This document shows positions 1,996 through 25,967 of a DNA stretch of 34,162 bases, piece after piece (the first letter of the stretch is position 1; the number at the start of each line of letters is the position of its first letter). The stretch comes from Escherichia coli (lineage in GTDB: Bacteria; Pseudomonadota; Gammaproteobacteria; Enterobacterales; Enterobacteriaceae). The notes under the pieces were generated by a model. The model ran no database searches and was not told the origin of the DNA. It was given only the letters and a program-made list of their open reading frames with translations. A program made the position numbers and the translations under genes. The stretch is taken from NCBI RefSeq assembly GCF_003334315.1, contig NZ_QOWR01000050.1; one strand, written 5' to 3'.

Positions 1996-2125
1996 CGCAC
2001 CCTGCCCTGTAATAAAACGGATTAAGAAAAATCAGTATAGAAACGAAAAGAGATAAATAATGCGAAGGTGTAAACAAGATTACTGGATGAGTTGCTCTGT
2101 TATCCTGAAAGACACCAAAACAAAA

Positions 2126-2149
2126 CGCGTCAAGCGCCGCATCCGGCAA
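2126..2149. repeat. REP-like (repetitive extragenic palindrome) fragment
   Basis: Minus-strand reading GCCGGATGCGGCGCTTGACGCG shares its first 13 nt with the REP consensus GCCGGATGCGGCG... as I recall it; intergenic location between convergent/tandem genes. Confidence 0.35.
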
Positions 2150-2150
2150 T

Positions 2151-2181
2151 AAAAAAACCGCAACCTGTATCAGCGTTGCGG
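2151..2181 (-). terminator. Rho-independent terminator after paaY (end of the paa transcription unit)
   Basis: Stem CCGCAAC (2158-2164) / GTTGCGG (2175-2181); on the minus strand it is followed by U7 (the A7 run at 2151-2157). Lies 46 bp downstream of the paaY stop. Confidence 0.7.
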
Positions 2182-2226
2182 TTTAGGGATCACATGCTAA
2201 AAATTAGAACGTCCAGCATCAGGACG

Positions 2227-2817
2227 TTACTGTTTCGGTCGCAGATTCTCATCAAATACCAGGCGTTTCCTGCCAGGTTCAATTTCCCGCAATGGCTCGA
2301 CTTGATGTAACGTCTGCTTACAGCGTGTCACCAGCACCTGATACTCATGCGTACCCTGCTTTTTCCATGCCAGCTCCTGCTCACTAAGTTCACGAATCGC
2401 TTTCGCCGGGCTGCCGACAATCAGGTAATTAGCAGGCATTTCTGCTTTGGCTTTCACAAATGCGGATGCGCCAACAATGCTGTTCTCGCCAATCACCGCA
2501 CCGTCCATCACTACCGCGTTCATTCCCACTAATGCATTGCGGCGGATAATGCAGCCGTGAAGGATAGCGCTATGACCAATATGTCCATCTTCTTCAACGA
2601 CAGTATCCTGCTCGGGAAAACCGTGCATAACGCAATTATCCTGAATGTTCGCGCCATCTTTCACCACGATACGACCAAAATCGCCACGCAGACTGGCATT
2701 TGGCCCAACGTAAACGCCCTTGCCGAGAATAACATCGCCGATCAATACCGCTGTCGGATGGACAAAACTCTCTTCTGGCACAACCGGAGTCAGACCGTCT
2801 ATCTGATAAATTGGCAT
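2227..2817 (-). CDS. paaY: Phenylacetate degradation protein PaaY (hexapeptide-repeat, gamma-carbonic-anhydrase-like thioesterase), 196 aa
   Basis: 196-aa ORF with left-handed beta-helix hexapeptide repeats (…[29 protein letters not shown]…); overlaps the paaX 3' end by 19 nt; last gene of the paa cluster. Confidence 0.85.
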
Positions 2818-3749
2818 AACGCCTCCTGTTCAATATTCAAGCCGCCAAAACGTTGAAAATACAGGCTTCCCGGCGCAGGCAGTTCACCGACCGAGGTTTC
2901 ACCTTTTTCACTAACGAACGCTAAAGCAGCAGGCGCTACGCGCTGATAAATGTTGATACACAGCTGACGTGCCGTATGCCCTGCCCAGTGTGCCGGAAGC
3001 AACTCCTCCGGCAACAATGGGTCTTTAAGGACGACACGGCGATAAAAATGGATCAGTAAAAGCTGAATATGAAATGCCCGCTCCGGGGTTAACTCGTCTG
3101 CCGCCTCTTTTAACAGCGGCACCAGCGGGCGGAATGACTGAATAAAGGTTTCGTACATGGCATTTTGTTCAGTTAAATGCCAGCACTCTTCTACTCTGGC
3201 ACGCAGTGCTGCGCGAGAAAGCGCCAGTGGTATTTGCGCTTCAAAACAAATCACGTTATCCGCCACCCCCGCTTCATGCAAAAGTGCCTGTACATCGGCC
3301 AGTTTTTGCGACGGCGATGCCATCAGGCTGGGTGCCAGTGCGCCAAAACCTTGCCAGATCAACTGCTTTTTGACATCAGCCAGCGTCGTTTTATCTAAAC
3401 CTTCCGAGAGCAACAGGAGCCATTTACCATCCCATGCAGGTTGCTCTGCGCGATAAATTTTACTTTCTGCCCGTCGCGTCAGGCGCAAGCCTTTATCACT
3501 GAGGCTATAGAAACTGCGTCGCCCGATGCGGGAAACATCCAGCCAGCCTTCTTTATTAAGACGAAACAAAGCGGTGCGCACGAAACGCTCACCAAATCCC
3601 AGCCCTTCCAGCAAAGCAGCCAGACTACCCAACCAGATTTCACCACCACGATGGGAAAGCGAATCACCATACAGAGAGGAGATCAAAGATGTGCCACTGA
3701 CCGGAACAGCGTTTACAGCATGTTGGATAAAAGTATCAAGTTTACTCAT
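2799..3749 (-). CDS. paaX: Phenylacetyl-CoA-responsive transcriptional repressor PaaX, 316 aa
   Basis: 316-aa ORF ([31 protein letters not shown]…) immediately upstream of paaY and downstream of paaK, the position and length of PaaX. Confidence 0.85.
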
Positions 3750-3810
3750 TCGCTTCAGTCTGTTGTTATTGTTGTGATTTATGAATCATAGCACAGGTCG
3801 TATCGACTTC

Positions 3811-3840
3811 TGGCCCTGGCGCTTTACCCCACCAGGGCCA
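3811..3840 (-). other. Stem-loop in the paaK-paaX intergenic region (9-bp stem, 12-nt loop, no U-tract)
   Basis: TGGCCCTGG (3811-3819) / CCAGGGCCA (3832-3840) are a perfect inverted repeat lying 10 nt after the paaK stop on the minus strand. Confidence 0.4.
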
Positions 3841-3849
3841 GACGATACG

Positions 3850-5163
3850 TCAGGCACCAACAATATTGCGCAGATCAAACACCCGACACGCCTTGCCTTC
3901 TGAACGCGGGATACTGCCACAGTTAACGATCATCACATCGGTAGAGATCCCCACCATCGACTTAATCCGATGGCGCAGCTGGTGGCATACCTGGCAACGC
4001 TGCTCATGCGTCAATGTCAGGCTACTTTCTTTCAACTCCACTTTCACAGAAAGTGAATCAAGATGCCCCCGGCGGTTCACCTCCAGTTGGTAATGCGGCG
4101 ATAAATGTTCGAATTTGACAATCTCTTCTTCCAGTTGTGACGGAAAGACATTTACACCGCGAATAATCAACATGTCATCGCTGCGTCCGCTGATGCGATC
4201 CATGCGGCGCATAGTCCGCGCCGTTCCTGGTAACAGTCGGGTTAAATCACGCGTGCGGTAACGAATGACCGGCAATGCTTCTTTGGTCAGCGTGGTGAAT
4301 AACAGTTCGCCATGTTCACCATCGGCAAGCGGTGTGCCGTCATGAGGATTAACAATTTCAGGATAGAAATGATCTTCCCAAATGGTTGGGCCGTCGGTAG
4401 TTTCCAGACACTCCATCGCCACCCCCGGCCCCATCACTTCTGACAGGCCATAAATATCCAGTGCGGTGATCCCCAGGCGACGCTCAATCTCTTTACGCAT
4501 GGCCTGTGTCCACGGCTCAGCACCAAATACTCCAACCCGCAGCGAGCAACCGCTGGCATCACCGCCCAACTGCCGCTCCAGCTCTTCAATCAGGTTAAGG
4601 CAATAAGATGGCGTAACCATGATCATATCTGGTTGAAAATCACGGATCAGTTGCGCTTGTTTTTCCGTCTGCCCGCCAGACATCGGGATCACCGTAGCGC
4701 CCAGACGTTCGGCACCATAGTGCGCACCCAGCCCACCAGTAAACAGGCCGTAACCATAGGCAACATGAATTTTGTCTTTGGGCGAGCCCCCTGCCGCACG
4801 CAAAGAACGCGCTACAATATTGGCCCAGTTATCAATATCGTTTTGCGTATAGCCGACAACTGTCGGTTTACCTGTGGTTCCCGAAGAAGCATGAATGCGC
4901 ACCACTTGTTCCATTGGCACGGCAAAGGTGTCAAAGGGATAGTTGTCGCGCAGATCCTGTTTGGTGGTACAGGGAAATTTACGCAGGTCTGAAAGTTCCC
5001 TGAAATCATCAGGATGTACGCCTGCTGCGTCGAATTTGCGCCGATACATCGGCACATTTTCATACGCGTGTTTGAGCGTCCATTTCAGACGCTGTGTTTG
5101 CAACGCCTGTAACTCATCAACAGACGCGGTTTCAATCGGGTCAAGCTTTGTATTGGTTATCAT
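3850..5163 (-). CDS. paaK: Phenylacetate-CoA ligase PaaK, 437 aa
   Basis: Adenylate-forming enzyme motif SSGTTGKPT is present. The track ORF (3850..5247) is over-extended; I trimmed it to the internal start MITNTKLDPIETASVDELQ, giving 437 aa. Confidence 0.85.
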   Translation of the reverse strand: MITNTKLDPIETASVDELQALQTQRLKWTLKHAYENVPMYRRKFDAAGVHPDDFRELSDLRKFPCTTKQDLRDNYPFDTFAVPMEQVVRIHASSGTTGKPTVVGYTQNDIDNWANIVARSLRAAGGSPKDKIHVAYGYGLFTGGLGAHYGAERLGATVIPMSGGQTEKQAQLIRDFQPDMIMVTPSYCLNLIEELERQLGGDASGCSLRVGVFGAEPWTQAMRKEIERRLGITALDIYGLSEVMGPGVAMECLETTDGPTIWEDHFYPEIVNPHDGTPLADGEHGELLFTTLTKEALPVIRYRTRDLTRLLPGTARTMRRMDRISGRSDDMLIIRGVNVFPSQLEEEIVKFEHLSPHYQLEVNRRGHLDSLSVKVELKESSLTLTHEQRCQVCHQLRHRIKSMVGISTDVMIVNCGSIPRSEGKACRVFDLRNIVGA

Positions 5164-5189
5164 TGTAGGGTACTCGCAGGTTGATATGC

Positions 5190-6395
5190 TCAAACACGCT
5201 CCAGAATCATGGCGATGCCCTGACCGACACCGATGCACATGGTGCACAATGCGTAACGACCGTTACGCCGATGCAGCTCATGGCTGGCAGCCAGTGCCAG
5301 GCGGGCACCACTCATTCCCAACGGATGGCCTAAGGCGATAGCGCCTCCGTTGGGGTTAACATGTGGGGCATCATCAGGCAGCCCCAATTCGCGTAGTACA
5401 CCCAACGCCTGGGCCGCGAACGCTTCGTTCAGTTCAATCACGTCCATATCGTGAATACTCAGCCCTGCGCGTTCCAGCACCCGGCGAGTTGCAGGCACCG
5501 GACCAAGTCCCATCAGGCGCGGTTCCACCCCGGCGGTTGCCATGGCTACGATACGCGCCCGCGGTGTCAGTCCTTGCGCTGCTGCCATCTGTTCACTGGC
5601 AATAATCAACGCAGCGGCTCCGTCATTCACCCCGGAAGCATTGCCTGCGGTAATCACCCCATTGGCACGAAATGGTGCTTTTAACCCACGTAACTGTTCC
5701 AGCGTCGTTTCCGGGCGCAGATGCTCATCATGTTGTATTTCTGTTACAACACCTTTCTTGTTTTTCAACACAACCGGAACAATCTCCTCAGCCAGAATGC
5801 CTGAGGATTGCGCTTTTGCCGTACGTTGCTGACTGCGTAGCGCAAAACTATCTTGATCTTCTCGTGAGATTTTTAACAGTTCAGCTACATTCTCTGCCGT
5901 TTCCGGCATGCTGTCAGTTCCAAATTGCTGAGCCATGAGCGGGTTCACAAATCGCCAGCCAATAGTGGTATCGAACATCTCAGCCTGACGAGAAAATGCA
6001 CTGGCTGCCTTGCCCATAACAAACGGTGCCCGTGACATTGACTCCACGCCACCGGCGATCAGCAAATCGCCATCGCCCGCTTTAATCGCCCGTGCGGCAA
6101 ACCCCAGTGCGTCCAGCCCGGAACCACACAAGCGGTTAATGGTTGTGCCGGAAACACTCTGCGGCAGCCCCGCCAGTAAAGTCGCCATCCGGGCTACGTT
6201 ACGGTTATCTTCTCCCGCCTGATTAGCACAGCCGAGGATCACATCATCGATACACTCCGCATCGAGACGCGGGTTTCGCACCAGCAGTTCCCGCAAAGGG
6301 ATAGCAGCCAGATCATCAGCCCGAACACTTGATAATGCCCCGCCGTAGCGACCAATTGGCGTACGAATTCCGTCACAAATAAAGGCTTCACGCAT
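5190..6395 (-). CDS. paaJ: 3-oxoadipyl-CoA / 3-oxo-5,6-dehydrosuberyl-CoA thiolase PaaJ, 401 aa
   Basis: Thiolase fold with active-site Cys region [10 protein letters not shown] and C-terminal CIGVGQG; start codon overlaps the paaI stop (ATGA). Confidence 0.9.
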
Positions 6396-6817
6396 CAGGC
6401 TTCTCCTGTAATGGTGCCGCCGATGCGGTGAGATTTACCGCGAAACAGCGCAACCGTTTTTTGTTGTTGGTTAACAATTTCGATGTCGTAAACACCGGTT
6501 TGCTTGCCCTGATGACGTACCTGCGCAGTAGCAGTTAAGGTGTCTCCGGCAAAGCCTGGACGCAAAAAATCAATCGTGCAGGCAGAAGCGACGGCTGCCA
6601 GCCCCTGGCTATTGCAGGCGTAGGCAAAGGCAGTATCAGCCAGTGAAAATAGCTGCCCGCCGTGGCAACTTTGATGACCGTTAAGCATTTGTGCAGTGAC
6701 GGTCATGGTCACTACAGCAAAGCCTTCATCCATTGAGATAATGTCGATGCCAAGCGCTTTGGCGCAGGCATCGTTCTCATACATTGCATGGGCATTTTGC
6801 CAGGCCTTATGACTCAT
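6395..6817 (-). CDS. paaI: Hotdog-fold acyl-CoA thioesterase PaaI, 140 aa
   Basis: Track ORF trimmed to the internal start MSHKAWQNAHAMYENDACAKALGIDI (140 aa); overlaps the paaH 3' end by 11 nt. Confidence 0.8.
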   Translation of the reverse strand: MSHKAWQNAHAMYENDACAKALGIDIISMDEGFAVVTMTVTAQMLNGHQSCHGGQLFSLADTAFAYACNSQGLAAVASACTIDFLRPGFAGDTLTATAQVRHQGKQTGVYDIEIVNQQQKTVALFRGKSHRIGGTITGEA

Positions 6818-8234
6818 AACCGCTCTCCAGAAGCGCCCGTTGGCGCAGCAATGAACATGGGCGATAGCGTTCTTCGCCATAGTGATGCTGTAGATTTTCA
6901 AGGAGCCTTAATATTCGCTGCCAGCCAAGTTGCGCTCCCCAGGCAAGTGGGCCATATGGATAATTCACCCCAAGACGCATGGCGGTATCGATATCCTGTT
7001 CAGAGGCCACGCCTTTTTGAAGCGCATCAAGGGCTTCATTGATGATCATTGCTACCGTTCGCCAAATCAGCATTCCTGGGTAATCTGCAATTTGCAGCAC
7101 TGTTTTGCCCTGCTGTTGCAGGTAATAAATGGCCTTGCGGGTCGCTGAGTCCGGGTTCACCGCTGCAGCAGCAATGGTCACCACCTTGCCCGCCATTTTA
7201 TCGATCACTACCACCGGGCGTGCCAGTCGTATTGCCAGCGCCTGTGCCGTCTCGCCTTGTGTCTCAATCAATAAAACATCGTCAATTTCCGTGACACCGT
7301 CACTTTTCTTTTCTACTTTCATTGGGCTAAAACTGTCGCTTACCGCTTCCAGGCCAACAACTGCCTCACGTTCCGCGCGCCAGTCGTACACGCCCAGCCC
7401 ACTTTTCTTGCCCAACCGTCCACCAATCACCAGTTCCTGTTGCACCAGCGAAGGTAAAAAACGACGCTCCTGCCAGAAAGCGTTAAACACCGAACAGGTG
7501 ACAGCAAAATTGACGTCCTGACCAATCAGATCGGTTAATTCCAGCGGCCCCATCGGGAAACCAGCGCCATCGCGAAGTGCAGCGTCAATCACTTCTGGTG
7601 CAGCAACCTGCTCTTCCAGTGCCCGCCAGGCCTCGGAATAATAAGGACGCGCAACACGGTTAACGATAAATCCAGGAGTCGAATGACAGCGCACAGGCTG
7701 CTTACCCCAACTCAACGTTAGTTCACACAACTGCTCAACAACTTCCGCCGCCGTTGCCAGCCCACTGACCACCTCCACCAACTTCATCACCGGTGCCGGG
7801 TTAAAAAAATGCAGCCCCGCAACACGTTCAGGATTTTTTATCTCCGCAGCAATCGCGGTTATAGAGATTGACGAAGTGTTAGTGGTCAATAGCGTTTGTG
7901 GCGGGCAAACTTCCGCCAGCTGTGCAAAGAGCGCTTTTTTGACTTCCAGACGTTCAGACGCCGCTTCAATGACCAGGTCCGCAGCTGCCAGCGCGTGAAT
8001 ATCGGTCACCGGGATCAGGCGTTTCAATGTGCGTTCACAGGTTTCAGCAGTCAGTTTTCCCCGCGTCACGCGTGAATTTAGCCGCGCGTGTATCCCGTCG
8101 ATTGCGCGGGTCAGCGCTTCAGCAGAAATGTCATACAGTAAAACCTGGTGTCCATGACTGGCAGCAACTTCAGCAATGCCTGCCCCCATGGTGCCGCTCC
8201 CAATCACTGCCACAGTTTGCACATTTATCATCAT
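6807..8234 (-). CDS. paaH: 3-hydroxyadipyl-CoA dehydrogenase PaaH, 475 aa
   Basis: N-terminal Rossmann motif VAVIGSGTMGAGIA; track ORF trimmed to MMINVQT so it no longer overlaps paaG (475 aa). Confidence 0.85.
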   Translation of the reverse strand: MMINVQTVAVIGSGTMGAGIAEVAASHGHQVLLYDISAEALTRAIDGIHARLNSRVTRGKLTAETCERTLKRLIPVTDIHALAAADLVIEAASERLEVKKALFAQLAEVCPPQTLLTTNTSSISITAIAAEIKNPERVAGLHFFNPAPVMKLVEVVSGLATAAEVVEQLCELTLSWGKQPVRCHSTPGFIVNRVARPYYSEAWRALEEQVAAPEVIDAALRDGAGFPMGPLELTDLIGQDVNFAVTCSVFNAFWQERRFLPSLVQQELVIGGRLGKKSGLGVYDWRAEREAVVGLEAVSDSFSPMKVEKKSDGVTEIDDVLLIETQGETAQALAIRLARPVVVIDKMAGKVVTIAAAAVNPDSATRKAIYYLQQQGKTVLQIADYPGMLIWRTVAMIINEALDALQKGVASEQDIDTAMRLGVNYPYGPLAWGAQLGWQRILRLLENLQHHYGEERYRPCSLLRQRALLESGYES

Positions 8235-8235
8235 G

Positions 8236-9024
8236 CTATTTCCCCGTGAACTGCGGTGAGCGTTTAGCCAGGAACGCACTGACACCTTCACGATAATCTG
8301 CGCTCCGTCCGGCAAGTCGCTGATAGTCACGTTCCAGATCCAGTTGCGTATCGAGCGTATTGGTTTCAGCGCTATTTATCGCTTGCTTGATAAGTCCAAG
8401 ACCAAATGTCGGTTGTGTCGCCAGATGCCGTGCCAGCTGTTGCGCGGTATCTGCCAGCGTTTCATCATCAACAACCTGCCAGATCATCCCCCATTCGTGC
8501 GCCTGTTCAGCACTCAGTTGATTCCCCAGCAGTGCCAGCCCCATGGCGCGCGCTCGTCCGGCAACGCGTGGCAGTAACCAGGTTCCACCGCAATCGGGTA
8601 TTAAGCCTAACTTACTAAACGCCATGACGAATTTTGCTGAACGGGCAGCAATAACGATGTCGCCCCCCAGTGCCAGTGTTGCGCCTGCCCCTGCCGCCAC
8701 GCCATTGACTGCACAGATCACCGGTTTTGGCAGTTTTGCCAGGCGACGTACCAGTGGGTTATAGAAACGTTCAACTGACATCCCTAAATCCGGTGCGGGG
8801 CCTGTGGGATCAACGTTACGATCGTTAAGATCCTGACCAGCACAAAATCCGCGCCCGGCACCTGTAAGTAACAGGCAACGGATAGTGTCGTCGCGCTCGA
8901 CCTGTTTCAGGCACTCTGCCAGTTGTGCGTGCATCTCATCATTAAAACTGTTCAGGCGTTCCGGGCGGTTGAGCGTTAGTGTCATCACGCCCTTTTCTAC
9001 ATGACTGAGGATGAATTCCATCAT
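8236..9024 (-). CDS. paaG: 1,2-epoxyphenylacetyl-CoA isomerase PaaG (crotonase fold), 262 aa
   Basis: 262-aa enoyl-CoA hydratase/isomerase-family protein; start overlaps the paaF stop (ATGA). Confidence 0.85.
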   Translation of the reverse strand: MMEFILSHVEKGVMTLTLNRPERLNSFNDEMHAQLAECLKQVERDDTIRCLLLTGAGRGFCAGQDLNDRNVDPTGPAPDLGMSVERFYNPLVRRLAKLPKPVICAVNGVAAGAGATLALGGDIVIAARSAKFVMAFSKLGLIPDCGGTWLLPRVAGRARAMGLALLGNQLSAEQAHEWGMIWQVVDDETLADTAQQLARHLATQPTFGLGLIKQAINSAETNTLDTQLDLERDYQRLAGRSADYREGVSAFLAKRSPQFTGK

Positions 9025-9791
9025 TAGCGTCCTTTAAAGTCGGGCGTGCGTTTTTGTAAGAAAGCGGAGATGCCTTCATGACGATCTTCTGTTGCCGCCA
9101 GCAAGGTGAATAACTGTCGCTCCTGGGCAAGTCCGGCTTGCAAAGCCACTTCCTGCGACTGGCGCAGCGCTTGCTTTGCCGCTTGTAAGGCCAGCGGCGA
9201 GTGACGTGCCATTTTCGATGCCAGCTGTAAGGCGTATTCGAGGGTTAAATCGCTGGGGAAGACGTCGCTAACCAGCCCGGCCTGCTGTGCTTGCTGAGCG
9301 GTGATACTTTCTCCGCTCAGCACCATTTTGCTGGCTAACGATTTACCGACACTACGGATTAAACGTTGCGTTCCGCCTGCGCCAGGCATGATGCCGAGAG
9401 TGATTTCCGGCAACCCAAAACGCGCGTTCTCTCCGGCAACCACCACATCGCACAACAATGCCAGTTCGCAACCCGCCCCAAGCGCGTAACCATTGACGGC
9501 TGCGATAAGTGGTTTATTAAAGGCCTGCAATCGCGCCCATAGCTGCGGACGTGTATCGTTTAAGGTGGCCGCGAGATCTTTTTCTGCCATTTCGTTGAGA
9601 TCGGCCCCAGCGGCAAAAAAGCGTGCATTACCGGTAATCACACAGACCGAAATGCTGGTATCGGTAGCCGCAGCTTCCAGTTCATTTACCAGTTGCATCA
9701 GCAGGGCATTATTTAGCGCATTACGTGCGGCGGGACGGTTAAGGGTCAGCAACAATACTCGTTGCTGACGGCTGACGATCAGTTCGCTCAT
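9024..9791 (-). CDS. paaF: 2,3-dehydroadipyl-CoA hydratase PaaF (crotonase fold), 255 aa
   Basis: 255-aa enoyl-CoA hydratase-family protein; start overlaps the paaE stop by 4 nt. Confidence 0.85.
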   Translation of the reverse strand: MSELIVSRQQRVLLLTLNRPAARNALNNALLMQLVNELEAAATDTSISVCVITGNARFFAAGADLNEMAEKDLAATLNDTRPQLWARLQAFNKPLIAAVNGYALGAGCELALLCDVVVAGENARFGLPEITLGIMPGAGGTQRLIRSVGKSLASKMVLSGESITAQQAQQAGLVSDVFPSDLTLEYALQLASKMARHSPLALQAAKQALRQSQEVALQAGLAQERQLFTLLAATEDRHEGISAFLQKRTPDFKGR

Positions 9792-10858
9792 GCCATCCCC
9801 TTCGCGTCAAAGTCAACCACCACATCGCTGGTCAGCGGCAGTGCCTGGCAACTCAACACATAACCTGCGGCCAGTTCATCCGGTTCCAGACTGTAATTGG
9901 TTTCCATCGCCACTTTGCCACGCAGCACTTTGCATTTGCAGGTCGCACAGACGCCGCCTTTGCAGGCATAGGGCAGATCCGCCCCCTGGCGCAATGCCGC
10001 ATCGAGAATGCTTTCATCGTCGGCATTAAGCACGATTTCCCGATCCCGCCCATCCTGACGTACAGTCACTTTTTGTCCGTCACTTTGCACGTTAACGCTA
10101 CGTTTGACGCGCGTGCCAGGCGTATTAAACCGCTCCAGATGAATGGTTTTATCTGGCATTCCCAGTGCTTTTAAGGCGGTTTCCGCGTCATCCATCATCG
10201 CCGCCGGACCACAAATAAATGCCTCATCATAAAGACGAAAATTAATGAGCGAGGCCCCAAGTGACTGTAATTTTTCACCGTCAATACGCCCGTGAAGCAG
10301 ATCGCTGTCGAGGGTTTCCTGACTGAAAATGCACAACAACTGTAAACGCTGAGGATATTTGTCTTTCAGGTCTGCCAGTGCCTGGCGAAACATCATGCTC
10401 TGGCTGGTACGGTTACCGTAGATCAGGGTGAACTGACTTTCAGGCTCGGTTTGTAAAGTGGTGGCGATAATCGCCAGCATTGGCGTAATACCTGATCCTG
10501 CTGCAATTGCCAGATAGCGCCCCTGGCGTTCGGCCTGCGGCTGATAGCCGAAATGCCCCTGCGGCACCATGACCTCCAGCGTCATACCCTGGCGGATGTG
10601 TTCGCGGGCATAGCGGGAGAAACGTCCGCCTTCAATGGCTTTCACCGCCACACTAATTTCGCCAGGCAGATAGCTGCGGCAAATGGAGTAACAACGGCGT
10701 AATTCTTCACCATCAAAGCTGGCTTTTAAGGTCAAATGTTGACCGGGGCGAAAGCGATACGCCTCCTGCAAAGGCTGGGGCACCGCAAAGGTAATGGTCA
10801 CCGCATCACGGGTTTCCGACTCGACTTTTGCCACTGTTAAGGAATGAAACGTTGTCAT
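9788..10858 (-). CDS. paaE: Ring-1,2-phenylacetyl-CoA epoxidase reductase subunit PaaE, 356 aa
   Basis: Ferredoxin-NADP-reductase-like N-terminal part and C-terminal plant-type 2Fe-2S motif CKGGVCATCKCKV; trimmed to the internal start MTTFHSLTVAKVESE (the track ORF overlapped paaD). Confidence 0.85.
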   Translation of the reverse strand: MTTFHSLTVAKVESETRDAVTITFAVPQPLQEAYRFRPGQHLTLKASFDGEELRRCYSICRSYLPGEISVAVKAIEGGRFSRYAREHIRQGMTLEVMVPQGHFGYQPQAERQGRYLAIAAGSGITPMLAIIATTLQTEPESQFTLIYGNRTSQSMMFRQALADLKDKYPQRLQLLCIFSQETLDSDLLHGRIDGEKLQSLGASLINFRLYDEAFICGPAAMMDDAETALKALGMPDKTIHLERFNTPGTRVKRSVNVQSDGQKVTVRQDGRDREIVLNADDESILDAALRQGADLPYACKGGVCATCKCKVLRGKVAMETNYSLEPDELAAGYVLSCQALPLTSDVVVDFDAKGMA

Positions 10859-10865
10859 GGCATCC

Positions 10866-11363
10866 TCAAATACATTTGAAATAATCGAAAGGTTCGCGGC
10901 AACTATCGCAGCGGTACAATGCTTTGCAGGCCGTGGAACCAAATTCACTGATAAGTGTGGTATGGACGCTGGCGCAGCGCGGGCAACGTACTTCTGGCGG
11001 CAAATGGGCATGGCAACTGTGTCCGGCGGGCGGGCTAATGCCATACTCTCGCAGACGCTCACGGGCATCGGGGGTCATCCAGTCGGTGGTCCATGCCGGG
11101 TCGAGTTGCAGCACAACCTGAACGGGGGTAAACCCGTTGGTTGTCATTGCCTCACGTATCGCGCCAATCAAATGTTCCGTTGCCGGACAACCGGAATATG
11201 TCGGCGTAAAGCCGATCACCCATCCTTCTCCCATCTGTGTCACATTACGCACCATGCCTAAATCAGTAATGGTCAGCACCGGGATCTCCGGGTCCGGGAT
11301 CTGGCTGAGTAGCGCCCATATCTCATGAACCTGTGGCGGTGCAATGGTGGCCAGACGTTGCAT
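10866..11363 (-). CDS. paaD: Phenylacetyl-CoA epoxidase accessory subunit PaaD, about 165 aa
   Basis: Cys-rich C-terminus (CPRCAS…CKALYRCDSC); start taken at MQRLATIAPP. The alternative start at 11384 would overlap paaC by 7 nt. Confidence 0.75.
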   Translation of the reverse strand: MQRLATIAPPQVHEIWALLSQIPDPEIPVLTITDLGMVRNVTQMGEGWVIGFTPTYSGCPATEHLIGAIREAMTTNGFTPVQVVLQLDPAWTTDWMTPDARERLREYGISPPAGHSCHAHLPPEVRCPRCASVHTTLISEFGSTACKALYRCDSCREPFDYFKCI

Positions 11364-11377
11364 ACCCATCTCCTCTG

Positions 11378-12124
11378 TTACCATTGCTGACCGGGCAAGA
11401 CACGCTGGAGATACTGCATTTCTGCCAGCATGGGTCCAAGGTGTTCGGTATGCAGTCCTTTTTTACCGCCAGTGCGATACGCCTGCTCTTGCGGTACGTT
11501 CAATGTGGCTTCGTTGATCCCGGCAAAAACTTCGGCTTCCCACGCTGCGCGTAAAGTGCGTGGATCAACCGCAATACCCTCTTCACTCAGTGCAATATCA
11601 ATCTCGTCGGCATCGAACAGTTCGGCGGTAAAACGCCACAACTTGTTGATGGCCTGCTGCATCTTTTGCCCTGATACGTCAGTACCATTGCCCAGTCGCT
11701 CCAGCCAGCCACGACTAAAACGCAGGTGATAGCGCGCTTCTTTAATTGCTTTGGCAGAAATCGCCGCCAGTTGCGGATCACGGCTTTCCATCAGACGGGT
11801 AAAGAGCGCCACATGCCATGCATCGATGAAATACTGGCGTGCAATGGTGTCGGCAAAATTGCCGTTTGGTTGTTCAACCAACAATAAGTTGCTGAACTGG
11901 CGCTCGTCTCGGGTGAAGGCCAGGGTATCTTCATCGCCTTCTCCCGCTAATTCAGCGGCATACGATAAGAAGTTGCGTGCCTGACCTAATAAATCGAGGC
12001 CAATGTTTGCCAGTGCGAGATCGATTTCCAGTTCCGGTGCGTGACCGCACCATTCACCCAACCGCTGGGAGAGCACCAGGCAGTTATCGCCCAGGCGCAA
12101 GGTGTAAGCCGTTAACTGATTCAT
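11378..12124 (-). CDS. paaC: Phenylacetyl-CoA epoxidase subunit PaaC, 248 aa
   Basis: Ferritin-like protein; trimmed to MNQLTAYTLRLGDN, leaving an 8-nt gap after paaB. Confidence 0.8.
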   Translation of the reverse strand: MNQLTAYTLRLGDNCLVLSQRLGEWCGHAPELEIDLALANIGLDLLGQARNFLSYAAELAGEGDEDTLAFTRDERQFSNLLLVEQPNGNFADTIARQYFIDAWHVALFTRLMESRDPQLAAISAKAIKEARYHLRFSRGWLERLGNGTDVSGQKMQQAINKLWRFTAELFDADEIDIALSEEGIAVDPRTLRAAWEAEVFAGINEATLNVPQEQAYRTGGKKGLHTEHLGPMLAEMQYLQRVLPGQQW

Positions 12125-12132
12125 TTCCGACC

Positions 12133-12420
12133 TCACATGTGCTCAATGCCATCAGGGATGGTGTAAAACGTTGGATGGCGATAGACCTTGCTTTCAGCCG
12201 GATCAAAAAATTCACCGCGTTCTTCCGGTTGCGAGGCAACAATTTCACTCGCCTTCACCACCCAAATTGAACATCCTTCGCTACGACGGGTGTAAGCATC
12301 ACGGGCATTTTCCAGTGCCATCCGCTCATCGGCAGCATGTAAACTGCCAACATGGCGGTGTGATAAGCCCTGTTTGCCACGCACGAAAACTTCGTATAAC
12401 GGCCAGTAAACATTACTCAT
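12133..12420 (-). CDS. paaB: Phenylacetyl-CoA epoxidase subunit PaaB, 95 aa
   Basis: 95-aa ORF MSNVYWPLYEVFVRGKQGLSHRHVGSLHAADERMALENARDAYTRR… between paaA and paaC. Confidence 0.9.
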   Translation of the reverse strand: MSNVYWPLYEVFVRGKQGLSHRHVGSLHAADERMALENARDAYTRRSEGCSIWVVKASEIVASQPEERGEFFDPAESKVYRHPTFYTIPDGIEHM

Positions 12421-12431
12421 TTTGAATCTCC

Positions 12432-13361
12432 TTATGCGACCTTACGGGCATGTTGTTTTTGTGCATGGGCCAGCGCTGCTTCCCGTACCCAGGTACCTTC
12501 TTCCCAGGCTTTACGTTTGGCGTCGAGCCTCTCCTGATTACAAATTCCGCGACCGTTAATTACTTCGTTAAACTCCTGCCAGTCGATCTCACCAAAGCGG
12601 TAGTGACCGCTTTCAGTGTCAAAATGCAGATCCGGGTCAGGAACGGTCATACCGAGCATTTCAACCTGTGGAACGGTGTTATCCACGAAACGCTGGCGGA
12701 GTTCGTCGTTGGTGAAACGTTTGATTTTCCAGGTGAGACTTCTGGCGCTGTTTGGCGAGTTATCATCGTTTGGCCCGAACATCATTAAGGCTGGCCACCA
12801 GAAACGGTTAATGGCGTCTTGCAACATCTGCTTTTGAGCTTCGCTGCCCTGCGCCAGTGCCATGCAGGCTTCAAACCCCTGACGCTGGTGAAAACTCTCT
12901 TCTTTGCAGATTTTCACCATTGCTCTGGCATACGGGCCATAAGAAGTGCGGCATAACGCCACCTGATTGACGATCGCTGCGCCATCCACCAGCCAGCCGA
13001 TAACACCGATATCAGCCCAACTCAATGTCGGATAATTAAAGATGGAGGAATATTTCATCCGTCCGTCGAGCATTTTTTGGTAGATGTCTTCTCTGGCGCA
13101 GCCCAGTGTTTCGGCGGCGCTATAGAGATACAGACCATGACCGGCTTCATCCTGCACTTTGGCCAACAGAATGGCTTTACGCCGCAAGGTTGGTGCGCGA
13201 GTGATCCAGTTACCTTCAGGCAACATACCAACAATCTCGGAGTGCGCATGCTGCCCAATCTGGCGGATCAATGTCTTTCGGTAAGCATCGGGCATCCAGT
13301 CCTGTGGCTCGATAGCCGTTTCCTGGGCTATCCGTTGCTCAAAGCGTTCTTCTTGGGTCAC
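12432..13361 (-). CDS. paaA: Ring-1,2-phenylacetyl-CoA epoxidase catalytic subunit PaaA, 309 aa
   Basis: 309-aa ferritin-like di-iron protein; first gene of the paaA-K operon, divergent from paaZ. Confidence 0.9.
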
Positions 13362-13402
13362 GTCATCACCTTTACGATTCCAGTTTTCGTGAATTAATTA
13401 AA

Positions 13403-13417
13403 AACACGAATCACATT
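13403..13417 (-). promoter_or_regulatory. PaaX operator box in the paaA promoter region
   Basis: Reverse complement AATGTGATTCGTGTT matches the 15-bp PaaX consensus WWTRTGATTCGYGWT (recalled from the literature) at every position; lies 42 bp upstream of the paaA start. Confidence 0.6.
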
Positions 13418-13587
13418 GCTTTATGAAAGTTACACAGTGGTTAACTAAAATCACAAATTTTGTATGTTTGAACTGTGACGGATTTCGCACCCTATTTTTA
13501 TAACTCATTATTTATCAGTGCATTAATGTTTTTAGTAGTTGATATACAGATCGCATAGTTAACATTTCGTTAAAATACGCCTTGCCT

Positions 13588-13602
13588 TTTATGATTCGTG
13601 AT
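13588..13602 (+). promoter_or_regulatory. PaaX operator box in the paaZ promoter region
   Basis: TTTATGATTCGTGAT matches WWTRTGATTCGYGWT at every position; lies 44 bp upstream of the paaZ start, in inverted orientation to the paaA-side box. Confidence 0.6.
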
Positions 13603-13645
13603 TTAACTATTAGCAACAGAAATGTGAAACATCTGGAGAGTAGCG

Positions 13646-15691
13646 ATGCAGCAGTTAGCCAGTTTCTTATCCGGTACCTGGCAGTCTGGCCGGGGCCGTA
13701 GCCGTTTGATTCATCACGCTATTAGCGGCGAGGCGTTATGGGAAGTGACCAGTGAAGGTCTTGATATGGCGGCTGCCCGCCTGTTTGCCATTGAAAAAGG
13801 TGCCCCAGCCCTTCGCGCGATGACCTTTATCGAACGTGCGGCGATGCTTAAAGCGGTCGCTAAACATCTGCTGAGTGAAAAAGAGCGTTTCTATGCTCTT
13901 TCTGCGCAAACAGGCGCAACGCGGGCAGACAGTTGGGTTGATATTGAAGGTGGCATTGGGACGTTATTTACTTACGCCAGCCTCGGTAGCCGGGAGCTGC
14001 CTGACGATACGCTGTGGCCGGAAGATGAATTGATCCCCTTATCGAAAGAAGGTGGATTTGCCGCGCGCCATGTACTGACCTCAAAGTCAGGCGTGGCAGT
14101 GCATATTAACGCCTTTAACTTCCCCTGCTGGGGAATGCTGGAAAAGCTGGCACCAACGTGGCTGGGCGGAATGCCAGCCATCATCAAACCAGCTACCGCG
14201 ACGGCCCAACTGACTCAGGCGATGGTGAAATCAATTGTCGATAGTGGTCTTGTTCCCGAAGGCGCAATTAGTCTGATCTGCGGTAGTGCGGGCGACTTGT
14301 TGGATCATCTGGACAGCCAGGATGTGGTGACTTTCACGGGGTCAGCGGCGACCGGACAGATGCTGCGAGTTCAGCCAAATATCGTCGCCAAATCTATCCC
14401 CTTCACCATGGAAGCTGATTCCCTGAACTGCTGCGTACTGGGCGAAGATGTCACCCCGGATCAACCGGAGTTTGCGCTGTTTATTCGTGAAGTTGTGCGT
14501 GAGATGACCACAAAAGCCGGGCAAAAATGTACGGCAATCCGGCGGATTATTGTGCCGCAAGTATTGGTTAATGCTGTCAGTGACGCTCTGGTTGCGCGAT
14601 TACAGAAAGTCGTGGTCGGTGATCCTGCTCAGGAAGGCGTGAAAATGGGCGCACTGGTAAATGCTGAGCAGCGTGCCGATGTGCAGGAAAAAGTGAACAC
14701 ATTGCTGGCTGCAGGATGCGAGATTCGCCTCGGTGGTCAGGCGGATTTATCAGCTGCGGGTGCCTTCTTCCCGCCAACCTTATTGTACTGTCCGCAGCCG
14801 GATGAAACACCGGCGGTACATGCAACAGAAGCCTTTGGCCCTGTCGCAACACTGATGCCAGCACAAAACCAGCAACATGCTCTGCAACTGGCTTGTGCAG
14901 GCGGCGGTAGCCTTGCGGGAACGCTGGTGACGGCTGATCCGCAAATTGCGCGTCAGTTTATTGCCGACGCGGCACGTACGCATGGGCGAATTCAGATCCT
15001 CAATGAAGAATCGGCAAAAGAATCCACCGGGCATGGCTCCCCACTGCCACAACTGGTACATGGTGGACCTGGTCGCGCAGGAGGCGGTGAAGAATTAGGT
15101 GGTTTACGGGCGGTGAAACATTACATGCAGCGAACCGCTGTTCAGGGTAGTCCGACGATGCTTGCCGCTATCAGTAAACAGTGGGTGCGCGGTGCGAAAG
15201 TCGAAGAAGATCGTATTCATCCGTTCCGCAAATATTTTGAGGAGCTACAACCAGGCGACAGCCTGTTGACTCCCCGCCGCACAATGACAGAGGCCGATAT
15301 TGTTAACTTTGCTTGCCTCAGCGGCGATCATTTCTATGCGCATATGGATAAGATTGCTGCTGCCGAATCTATTTTCGGTGAGCGTGTCGTGCATGGGTAT
15401 TTTGTGCTTTCTGCGGCTGCGGGTCTGTTTGTCGATGCCGGTGTCGGTCCGGTCATAGCTAACTACGGGCTGGAAAACTTGCGTTTTATCGAACCCGTAA
15501 AACCAGGCGATACCATCCAGGTGCGTCTCACCTGTAAGCGCAAGACGCTGAAAAAACAGCGTAGCGCAGAAGAAAAACCAACAGGTGTGGTGGAATGGGC
15601 GGTAGAGGTATTCAATCAGCATCAAACCCCGGTGGCGCTGTATTCAATTCTGACGCTGGTGGCCAGGCAGCACGGTGATTTTGTCGATTAA
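13646..15691 (+). CDS. paaZ: Bifunctional oxepin-CoA hydrolase / 3-oxo-5,6-dehydrosuberyl-CoA semialdehyde dehydrogenase PaaZ, 681 aa
   Basis: 681-aa protein with an N-terminal aldehyde dehydrogenase domain and a C-terminal MaoC-like hotdog hydratase domain; GGAGAG ribosome-binding site before the ATG. Confidence 0.9.
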
Positions 15692-21415: not shown

Positions 21416-21601
21416 TCAGAAAAGATCGCTACGAGTTTCAAGCAGCTCTTCGACATCTTTGTCTGCCTTGATGATGATCTCATGCTCAATTTTAACGTTC
21501 ATATTGATAGTGATCGGTTCCTTAGGTGCAGCGACTTCAATGCGAGGCGTACAGCCAACCAGCATAAAAGATGACGTCAACGCAGCCAGTAAAATTTTCA
21601 T
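21416..21601 (-). CDS. ynbE: Small lipoprotein YnbE, 61 aa
   Basis: 61-aa ORF with a lipobox-like LVGC (MKILLAALTSSFMLVGCTPR…); start overlaps the ydbH stop by 4 nt. Confidence 0.75.
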   Translation of the reverse strand: MKILLAALTSSFMLVGCTPRIEVAAPKEPITINMNVKIEHEIIIKADKDVEELLETRSDLF

Positions 21602-25544: not shown

Positions 25545-25967
25545 ATGAAGAAAGTAGCCGCGTTTGTTGCGCTAAGCCTGCTGATGGCGGGATGTGTAAG
25601 TAATGACAAAATTGCTGTTACGCCAGAACAGCTACAGCATCATCGCTTTGTGCTGGAAAGCGTAAACGGTAAGCCCGTGACCAGCGATAAAAATCCGCCA
25701 GAAATCAGCTTTGGTGAAAAAATGATGATTTCCGGCAGCATGTGTAACCGCTTTAGCGGTGAAGGCAAACTGTCTAATGGTGAACTGACAGCCAAAGGGC
25801 TGGCAATGACCCGTATGATGTGCGCTAACCCGCAGCTTAATGAACTCGATAACACCATTAGCGAAATGCTGAAAGAAGGTGCACAAGTGGATCTGACCGC
25901 GAACCAGTTAACGCTGGCGACCGCAAAACAGACATTAACTTATAAGCTGGCGGATTTAATGAATTAA
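25545..25967 (+). CDS. hslJ: Heat-shock lipoprotein HslJ, 140 aa
   Basis: MKKVAAFVALSLLMAGCVSN lipoprotein signal; the track ORF starts at a TTG 12 nt upstream. Confidence 0.85.
   Translation: MKKVAAFVALSLLMAGCVSNDKIAVTPEQLQHHRFVLESVNGKPVTSDKNPPEISFGEKMMISGSMCNRFSGEGKLSNGELTAKGLAMTRMMCANPQLNELDNTISEMLKEGAQVDLTANQLTLATAKQTLTYKLADLMN

Follow-up and report, generated by a model that had tools for sequence, protein, structure and literature searches.

The paa genes for phenylacetate breakdown lie so close together in Escherichia coli that several stop codons meet or pass the next start codon, and this raises the question of how each pair of genes is joined and whether the junctions couple the translation of neighbors. 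We addressed this in a window of 34,162 nt (the whole stretch analyzed; contig NZ_QOWR01000050.1), taking the RefSeq gene boundaries as junction boundaries and verifying them by translation; all coordinates refer to the minus strand.

Junctions of the paa cluster

On its minus strand, the window contains the paaABCDEFGHIJK-paaXY cluster of E. coli. Over positions 5190-11384 it is ~100% identical to K-12 MG1655 (megablast), with a single SNP at position 5508, and the order of paaA-K, paaX, paaY, and paaZ is that annotated in MG1655. Gene content, order, and identity to the characterized K-12 cluster thus assign it to the E. coli type. It matches the RefSeq K-12 cluster in genes, order, boundaries, and sequence with no relevant difference, and the strain departs from K-12 in the flanks only. 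The operon and its closest junctions are as follows:

3850..13361, minus strand: paaABCDEFGHIJK catabolic operon (RefSeq CDS coordinates, clean translation of every CDS)
9788..9791, minus strand: paaE stop and paaF start, a true 4-nt ATGA overlap (GGC-ATGA-GCG; translation)
9019..9026, minus strand: paaF stop TAA (9026-9024) and paaG ATG (9024-9022), 1-nt overlap TAATG
8232..8238, minus strand: paaG stop TAG, one-base spacer, paaH ATG (TAG-C-ATG)
6807..6817, minus strand: paaH/paaI 11-nt overlap, ATGAGTCATAA (RefSeq and translation)
6393..6397, minus strand: paaI stop TGA (6397-6395) and paaJ ATG (6395-6393), 1-nt overlap TGATG
2799..2817, minus strand: paaX/paaY 19-nt overlap (RefSeq and translation)

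The first-pass annotation had described ATGA overlaps at three of these junctions, and we found only that of paaE and paaF, at 9791-9788, to be real. At paaF/paaG, likewise listed as ATGA, the genes share a single base. The string ATGA is present there (9024-9021) with its TGA in the paaF frame, but because this TGA (9023-9021) follows the real TAA stop it is a tandem second stop; a second paaG ATG lies at 9021-9019, and a second ATG also directly follows the paaH start. The third proposed ATGA, at paaI/paaJ, does not occur at the site, which has the 1-nt TGATG instead. Nine of the 13 paa genes start with ATG-A, the likely source of the mistaken calls. Both longer overlaps were given with the right length: that of paaH/paaI lies at 6817-6807, and that of paaX/paaY at 2817-2799, outside the range of 5190-11384 to which it had been assigned. 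The +1 spacing of paaG and paaH had been missed. The corrected picture is one ATGA, two 1-nt overlaps, one +1 junction, one -11, and one -19.

Measured from stop to start (negative values are overlaps), the distances on the oxygenase side are A>B +11, B>C +8, C>D +14, and D>E +7 nt, and those from paaE to paaK are E>F -4, F>G -1, G>H +1, H>I -11, I>J -1, and J>K +26 nt; paaX follows at +100 and X>Y is -19. PaaX represses the operon in cells that are not growing on phenylacetate. From paaA to paaK all genes are on the minus strand with gaps of at most +26 nt. A scan of positions 2000-13800 for terminator-like and promoter sites returned counts at the level of chance and no site at any junction, bearing in mind that a scan of this kind for consensus sites does not establish function.

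Is this arrangement unusual? In E. coli, -4 and -1 are the commonest intergene distances, and 24% of co-directional pairs (707/2987) lie at -8 to +6 nt (Huber 2023, PMC10666635). Four of the 10 paaA-K junctions fall in that range (P=0.19 against this baseline); a window of -8 to +10 nt gives P=0.03, and the windows tried gave P=0.19, 0.03, and 0.05, a significance that is overstated since the baseline includes non-operon pairs. ATGA strings show no excess in the window either (317 observed versus 301 ± 18 in shuffles). The junction pattern thus exists but is nothing out of the ordinary in an operon, with no clear enrichment over the genome baseline. This agrees with neutral compaction, according to which the overlaps result incidentally from deletion bias and from the turnover of stop and start codons in a gene-dense operon, downstream genes initiate independently from their own Shine-Dalgarno (SD) sequences, and the overlaps have no regulatory role.

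Ribosome-binding sites and start codons

Each start at a tight or overlapping junction is preceded by an SD-like motif:

9802-9796, minus strand: SD-like AAGGGGA of paaF, inside paaE (anti-SD pairing -7.9 kcal/mol)
9035-9030, minus strand: SD-like AAAGGA of paaG
8245-8241, minus strand: SD-like GGGGA of paaH
6828-6825, minus strand: SD-like GGAG of paaI
6407-6403, minus strand: SD AGGAG of paaJ
2827-2822, minus strand: strong SD AGGAGG of paaY (pairing -10.3 kcal/mol)

At paaF, paaG, paaH, paaI, and paaJ the computed duplex with the 16S 3' end has -5.3 to -7.9 kcal/mol, compared with a background mean of -2.9, and the motif ends 3-6 nt before the ATG (pairing computation). For these five genes and paaY, the motif falls near the 3' terminus of the preceding gene and at a working distance from the start; at every tight junction it lies within the upstream gene, in a position that is conserved across genera. 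An SD of its own could allow each downstream gene to initiate independently, as neutral compaction holds and as bioB/bioF does, an E. coli ATGA pair with de novo initiation and no coupling (PMC6728339). We also compared the predicted unpaired probability of the start region (-14 to +3) at the 13 paa starts. The starts of paaA, paaD, paaK, and paaX rank near the 90th percentile and the overlapped starts between the 14th and 74th, a weak, non-significant trend; with only 13 starts, accessibility cannot separate reinitiation from the unmasking of structure.

The overlaps had further been taken to support internal start codons over those of longer open reading frames. The internal starts hold up, on other grounds (SD strength, closed frames, and RefSeq). 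For paaF, paaG, paaJ, and paaY there is no in-frame alternative upstream of the annotated start, so their overlaps discriminate nothing, and the internal starts of paaH, paaE, paaD, paaC, and paaK give spacers rather than overlaps. RefSeq annotates the internal starts, and SD pairing is stronger there than at the alternatives, the starts of the long reading frames (paaE 11068, paaH 8330, paaI 6901, and paaK 5247) having weak SDs. In most other species an in-frame stop interrupts the long extension, in 56/62 loci for paaE, 42/55 for paaH, and 56/64 for paaK. The paaI start gains only moderate support from this test, its extended frame being open in 36/55 loci, of which a start codon so far upstream occurs in only 17/55 of all loci; for the short upstream alternatives of paaC (+4 aa) and paaD (+2 or +7 aa; its three ATGs lie at 11384, 11369, and 11363), the frame-closure test did not distinguish them from the annotated starts. 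The crystallized PaaH and PaaI constructs start at the internal codons, and 3MOG, 1PSU, and 4FZW begin at the annotated residues, which shows that the short forms fold and not what the native N-termini are. Together, this evidence, which is independent of the overlaps, supports the internal start codons.

If some start calls were wrong, the true starts, and hence the junctions, would differ. The paaG gene begins ATG-ATG, and in most other Enterobacteriaceae the F>G junction reads TAA-NN-ATG/GTG (+2), aligning to the second E. coli ATG, so that the 1-nt overlap of paaF and paaG depends on the first; in divergent E. coli lineages the annotated geometry is unchanged. The doubled ATG of paaH and the nearby alternatives of paaC and paaD point in the same direction. 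PaaG would begin MMEF or MEF, and PaaH MMIN or MIN, depending on which of the two ATGs is used. However, the second paaG ATG would only shift the junction from -1 to +2, which is still tight; paaF, paaG, paaJ, and paaY lack an upstream in-frame start, have an SD upstream, and align with the N-termini of their orthologs; and the long reading frames have weak SDs and are closed in other species. An artifact of annotation is therefore very improbable as the origin of the overlaps. We separately considered the -11 and -19 overlaps as misannotations and rejected this, as the downstream SDs are conserved or strong and paaY has no upstream alternative start.

Conservation of the junction classes

We compared 80 paa loci of other species in ~30 genus-level groups that are not phylogenetically independent; Pseudomonas and Burkholderia are absent from the set. 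The I>J junction is overlapped in 43/43 loci (-1 in 20, -4 in 20, and -8 in three) and in 28/28 groups, including alphaproteobacteria, and H>I in 36/37 loci (-11 in 19, -8 in nine, -4 in four, and -1 in four) and 23/24 groups. G>H is +1 to +3 in 45/56 loci and tight in 25/29 groups, and F>G is tight (-11 to +6) in 21/25; distances at these two junctions are usually between -1 and +3 nt. Tightness is thus maintained at these four junctions and only partly at E>F, which is -4 in 12/21 groups and -1 in 2/21 (14/21 tight) and has distances of at least +8 in Serratia, Providencia, and Acinetobacter. It is not maintained at X>Y. By contrast, J>K (0/27 groups), A>B (0/31), and D>E (0/31) are never tight, and J>K and the junctions of the oxygenase genes are spaced in all loci compared. 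Junction class is therefore position-specific and conserved across genera, and this cross-species conservation is in part phylogenetic inertia.

These patterns bear on neutral compaction in both directions. At E>F and X>Y the spacing differs greatly from genus to genus (-28 to +275, the full range of X>Y in other species), a point in its favor. Yet H>I and I>J switch among -1, -4, -8, and -11 between lineages and never open, which argues for a constraint on tightness and not on sequence, and no tight junction occurs at J>K, A>B, or D>E in the same genomes, a position-specific pattern that is not expected from uniform compaction. We suggest that the persistence of tight spacing across genera at all four junctions from F>G to I>J is consistent with constraint.

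Probable translational coupling

The first-pass annotation had read the overlaps as a signature of translational coupling. In reporter assays of native E. coli ATGA pairs, strict coupling was found in 4/5, including ydbH/ynbE (PMC6728339), and Huber 2023 takes a distance of -8 to +10 nt to predict reinitiation, with pairs in this range 4.5-fold enriched for heteromeric partners (PMC10666635). Compared with the coupled pairs of these two studies (Huber 2019/2023; PMC6728339, PMC10666635), the ATGA of E>F, the TAATG of F>G, and the TGATG of I>J match the canonical overlaps with an SD in the upstream gene, and G>H (+1) lies within the predictive range, which also takes in B>C at +8 nt and D>E at +7 nt. 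The overlaps at H>I (-11) and X>Y (-19) are too long for it, and the gaps of +11 nt at A>B, +14 nt at C>D, and +26 nt at J>K too wide. PaaF and PaaG fit the reported enrichment of heteromeric partners, being the only lower-pathway enzymes found as a stable complex (PMC4498308; structure, PDB 4FZW), whereas the heteromeric oxygenase genes differ, with spacers of +7 to +14 in place of overlaps. The ydbH/ynbE pair shares organism and ATGA geometry with paaE/paaF, but the coupling demonstrated by reporter is its own, and its genes, of an envelope/lipoprotein system, are unrelated to paa; it is a precedent and not evidence on paa. A search of the literature on the paa operon turned up no report of coupling, of overlaps, or of mapped N-termini.

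Coupling is the standard and, on these comparisons, a plausible reading of the -4, -1, and +1 junctions with an upstream SD. That most E. coli ATGA pairs were coupled in published tests also speaks against neutral compaction, to which the overlaps of paaH/paaI and paaI/paaJ, genes without any known product complex, lend some credit; on balance we consider neutral compaction unlikely. We instead propose that these are ordinary close-packed polycistronic junctions at which the translation of neighbors is probably coupled through termination and reinitiation. From paaE to paaJ, each putative ribosome-binding site lies within the final codons of the gene before it, with the stop on or at most one base from the next start (ATGA, TAATG, TAG-C-ATG, or TGATG) or, at paaH/paaI, 8 nt past it. 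A terminating ribosome would then already be placed at the next SD and AUG, and it or its 30S subunit could reinitiate locally, while upstream translation might keep the embedded binding site unfolded for fresh initiation. The output of neighboring enzymes would thereby be tied together, and one consequence would be a near-equal supply of PaaF and PaaG for their 6:6 hetero-dodecamer. The genes from paaA to paaE are instead set apart by +7 to +14 nt, with an SD in the spacer, and paaK (+26) and paaX (+100) would have independent starts. Several observations run against coupling: the heteromeric oxygenase PaaABC(D)E is encoded with spacers; paaH/paaI and paaI/paaJ overlap though no complex of their products is known; the -11 and -19 overlaps exceed the predictive range; bioB/bioF is an uncoupled ATGA pair; the operon is not significantly tighter than the genome baseline; the accessibility trend is weak; and the conservation among related species partly reflects phylogenetic inertia.

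A stronger version is that purifying selection maintains the tightness of paaF-G-H-I-J and so fixes the synthesis ratios of the lower pathway, including 1:1 PaaF:PaaG for the hetero-dodecamer, with the proofreading thioesterase PaaI tied strictly to PaaH and PaaJ. We offer this tentatively, as something that could be so but that we would not presume. If true, the paaF-G-H-I-J block would be a clean natural test of why coupling persists between enzymes that form no complex.

Tight junctions such as these are already known as a common bacterial operon layout, short stop/start overlaps being the commonest type of operon junction in E. coli, and RefSeq already carries these gene boundaries, so the pattern has little importance beyond correct annotation. 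Our analysis adds modestly to this a corrected description of the junctions, their position-specific conserved classes, and independent support for the internal starts. Coupling, if true, would matter mainly for engineering or modeling the expression ratios of the phenylacetate pathway. As a separate observation, the ydbH/ynbE ATGA pair lies in the same window, at 21598-21601 on the minus strand.

Junctions of the paa gene cluster

The stretch at 5190-11384 is ~100% identical to the paa (phenylacetate-degradation) locus of E. coli K-12 MG1655, with a single-base difference at 5508 and other divergence confined to the flanks, and 3165 of the 5426 complete E. coli genomes carry it. For gene boundaries, we mapped the K-12 RefSeq annotation onto the window, in which paaA-K and paaXY run on the minus strand and paaZ on the plus; all 13 annotated coding sequences translate without internal stops. 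This is the already known paa cluster of E. coli, and its gene boundaries are those that RefSeq gives. The cluster is missing from ~42% of complete E. coli genomes and is decaying in some others (IS4 insertion within the cluster; paaE truncated or with an internal stop). Every junction was read on the coding strand, and Shine-Dalgarno (SD) strength was taken as duplex energy with the 16S 3' end.

Junctions of the paa cluster, all on the minus strand. Distances run from stop to start (negative, overlap); SD energies (kcal/mol) are for the downstream gene (background mean, -2.9).
paaA/paaB: +11 nt
paaB/paaC: +8 nt
paaC/paaD: +14 nt
paaD/paaE: +7 nt
paaE/paaF: -4 nt, ATGA; SD -7.9
paaF/paaG, 9019-9026: -1 nt, TAATG; SD -5.3
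paaG/paaH: +1 nt, TAG-C-ATG; SD -5.7
paaH/paaI: -11 nt, ATGAGTCATAA; SD -6.4
paaI/paaJ: -1 nt, TGATG; SD -7.4
paaJ/paaK: +26 nt
paaK/paaX: +100 nt
paaX/paaY, 2799-2817: -19 nt; SD -10.3

These distances partly confirm the first-pass annotation, which had listed three ATGA overlaps. The one at paaE/paaF stands. At paaF/paaG the string occurs, but its TGA, in the paaF frame, lies downstream of the true TAA stop (tandem TAA-TGA), leaving an actual overlap of a single base; no ATGA occurs at paaI/paaJ. This confusion probably arose from the frequent ATG-A starts (A at position +4), which we found in 9 of the 13 paa genes. The 11-nt paaH/paaI overlap had been read correctly, as had the length of the 19-nt paaX/paaY overlap, although the latter lies outside 5190-11384, where it had been placed. 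The +1 junction at paaG/paaH had gone unlisted.

The ATGA string itself is not enriched (317 observed against 301 +/- 18 expected), and the proper null is how far apart co-directional genes lie across the whole genome. The commonest such distance in E. coli is -4, followed by -1 and -8; 707 of 2,987 co-directional pairs (24%) fall at -8 to +6 nt and a further 203 at +9 to +12 nt (PMC10666635). Against this baseline, 4 of 10 paa junctions lie at -8 to +6 (P=0.19) and 6 of 10 at -8 to +10 (P=0.03), and even the smaller P is generous since the baseline takes in non-operon pairs. The pattern of tight junctions is real but typical. Elsewhere in the window, at ~25964-25967, the convergent genes hslJ (plus strand) and ydbJ (minus strand) overlap by 4 nt at their 3' ends (RefSeq, near-identical strain).

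Start codons

The overlaps had also been said to support internal start codons over those of the longest ORFs. This argument is empty for paaF, paaG, paaJ and paaY because none of them has an upstream in-frame start; the internal starts themselves are supported by independent evidence. Longer alternatives exist in six genes, and in these the annotated starts are favoured. SD energies at annotated versus alternative starts are -6.3 versus -1.9 for paaC (+4 aa), -9.1 versus -2.4 for paaD (+2/+7), -6.0 versus about -3 for paaE (up to +70), -5.7 versus -3.5 to -3.9 for paaH (up to +32), and -6.4 versus -3.7 and +0.4 for paaI (+21/+28), while the paaK SD (up to +28) is weak at both candidate starts. 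In most other species, in-frame stops close the long extensions of paaE (56/62), paaH (42/55) and paaK (56/64), a test that has no power over the short paaC and paaD alternatives. The annotated paaI start is only moderately supported. PDB constructs of PaaH (3MOG) and PaaI (1PSU) start at the annotated residues, evidence only for folding of the short forms.

The paaG gene opens with ATG-ATG, and most Enterobacteriaceae align to the second ATG (TAA-NN-ATG, +2), so E. coli has the 1-nt overlap only if translation starts at the first; the junction is tight with either. In most other Enterobacteriaceae the second position holds the sole start codon (ATG or GTG) of the two. Two consecutive ATGs likewise open paaH (8234-8229, minus strand).

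Conservation of junctions across species

We mapped Paa orthologs by tblastn in 80 paaG-containing loci from other species, merged for junction counts into genus-level groups, and measured stop-to-start geometry. The E. coli gene order is kept in ~50 of the 80. Each position has its own conserved junction class: paaI/paaJ overlaps in 43/43 loci and 28/28 groups (-1, -4 or -8), Thiothrix, Haliea and alphaproteobacteria included, and paaH/paaI in 36/37 loci and 23/24 groups (-11, -8, -4, -1); paaF/paaG lies at -1 to +4 in 50/54 loci and paaG/paaH at +1 to +3 in 45/56. The paaE/paaF junction is at -4 or -1 only within Enterobacteriaceae, and is spaced in Serratia, Providencia, Xenorhabdus and Acinetobacter. 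The tight state was never seen at paaJ/paaK (0/27 groups), paaA/paaB (0/31) or paaD/paaE (0/31), and paaX/paaY varies from -28 to +275. Divergent E. coli lineages (98.3-98.6% identity) share the same geometry. In Acinetobacter/Moraxellaceae loci, paaF/paaG is TAATG/TGATG (-1) throughout, and paaH and paaJ lie ~+12 nt apart with no paaI detected between them.

The overlap state switches repeatedly among lineages while tightness is retained. For example, paaI/paaJ reads TGATG in Enterobacter, ATGA in Cedecea, Serratia and Thiothrix, and ATGNNTGA in Providencia vermicola and Terasakiella. Such switching fits a constraint on tightness better than sequence inertia, with the caution that the taxa are not independent.

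Probable translational coupling

The tight junctions are best read, in textbook fashion, as probable sites of termination-reinitiation, and the earlier interpretation as translational coupling is supported in part. A ribosome ending the upstream gene would already be placed on the SD and AUG of the next gene and could reinitiate locally, and upstream translation would hold the embedded ribosome-binding site unfolded. At every tight junction the upstream gene carries an SD-like motif in its final codons, in a conserved position, and a sequence scan found no terminator-like site at any paa junction. Predicted ribosome-binding-site accessibility shows a weak trend only, first or spaced genes being more open and overlapped starts average or less open. 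SDs are weak at paaA (GTG start annotated; -4.3 kcal/mol), paaK (-2.5) and paaX (-1.0).

Reporter assays found strict coupling in 4 of 5 native E. coli ATGA pairs (PMC6728339), and spacers of +14 to +38 nt already cut reinitiation sharply (PMC6728339, PMC10666635). By geometry the paa junctions are members of the well-described short-overlap class, which is defined functionally by dependence on upstream translation; its geometric, SD and conservation features are found at paaE/paaF, paaF/paaG, paaG/paaH and paaI/paaJ. Our literature search returned no report of upstream-translation dependence for paa genes. The main rival is neutral compaction, with overlaps but no coupling and each SD initiating independently; such initiation has a precedent in bioB/bioF (PMC6728339), and we consider this account rather unlikely for paa. 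Among the experimentally coupled ATGA pairs is ydbH/ynbE (PMC6728339), whose ATGA lies in the same window (21598-21601, minus strand); ydbL starts 14 nt beyond the ynbE stop (RefSeq).

Heteromeric partners are 4.5-fold enriched at tight E. coli junctions (PMC10666635), and the lower-pathway enzymes have yielded a single stable complex, the 6:6 hetero-dodecamer of PaaF and PaaG (PMC4498308; PDB 4FZW). Against a simple complex-stoichiometry account, the genes for the oxygenase subunits PaaABC(D)E have spacers of +7 to +14 nt, and paaH/paaI and paaI/paaJ overlap without any known complex.

Probable transcript ends, and flanks

Two hairpins follow paa stop codons:
3790-3849, minus strand: 20-bp GC-rich hairpin directly after the paaK stop, without a T-run
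2208-2228, minus strand: terminator-like hairpin with a T-rich tail, beginning at the last base of the paaY stop codon

The 103-nt paaK-paaX spacer is strongly structured (MFE -40.2 kcal/mol, z = -5.1; 0/200 shuffles equally stable), and the first hairpin is probably the 3' end of the paaA-K transcript or a stabilising stem-loop, upstream of the paaX promoter region. The second is plausibly the end of the paaXY transcript. The left flank (1-2226) is unlike K-12: paaY is followed by pdxI and a frameshifted, truncated bactofilin-like pseudogene, where K-12 has the ydbA pseudogene, and a ~99-nt indel separates the window from its best-matching strains. Both window ends (1-81 and ~34012-34162) fall within IS1A transposase sequence, so IS1 copies bracket the 34-kb stretch, which also accounts for the large number of BLAST places per genome (median 10-11) for the two end segments.
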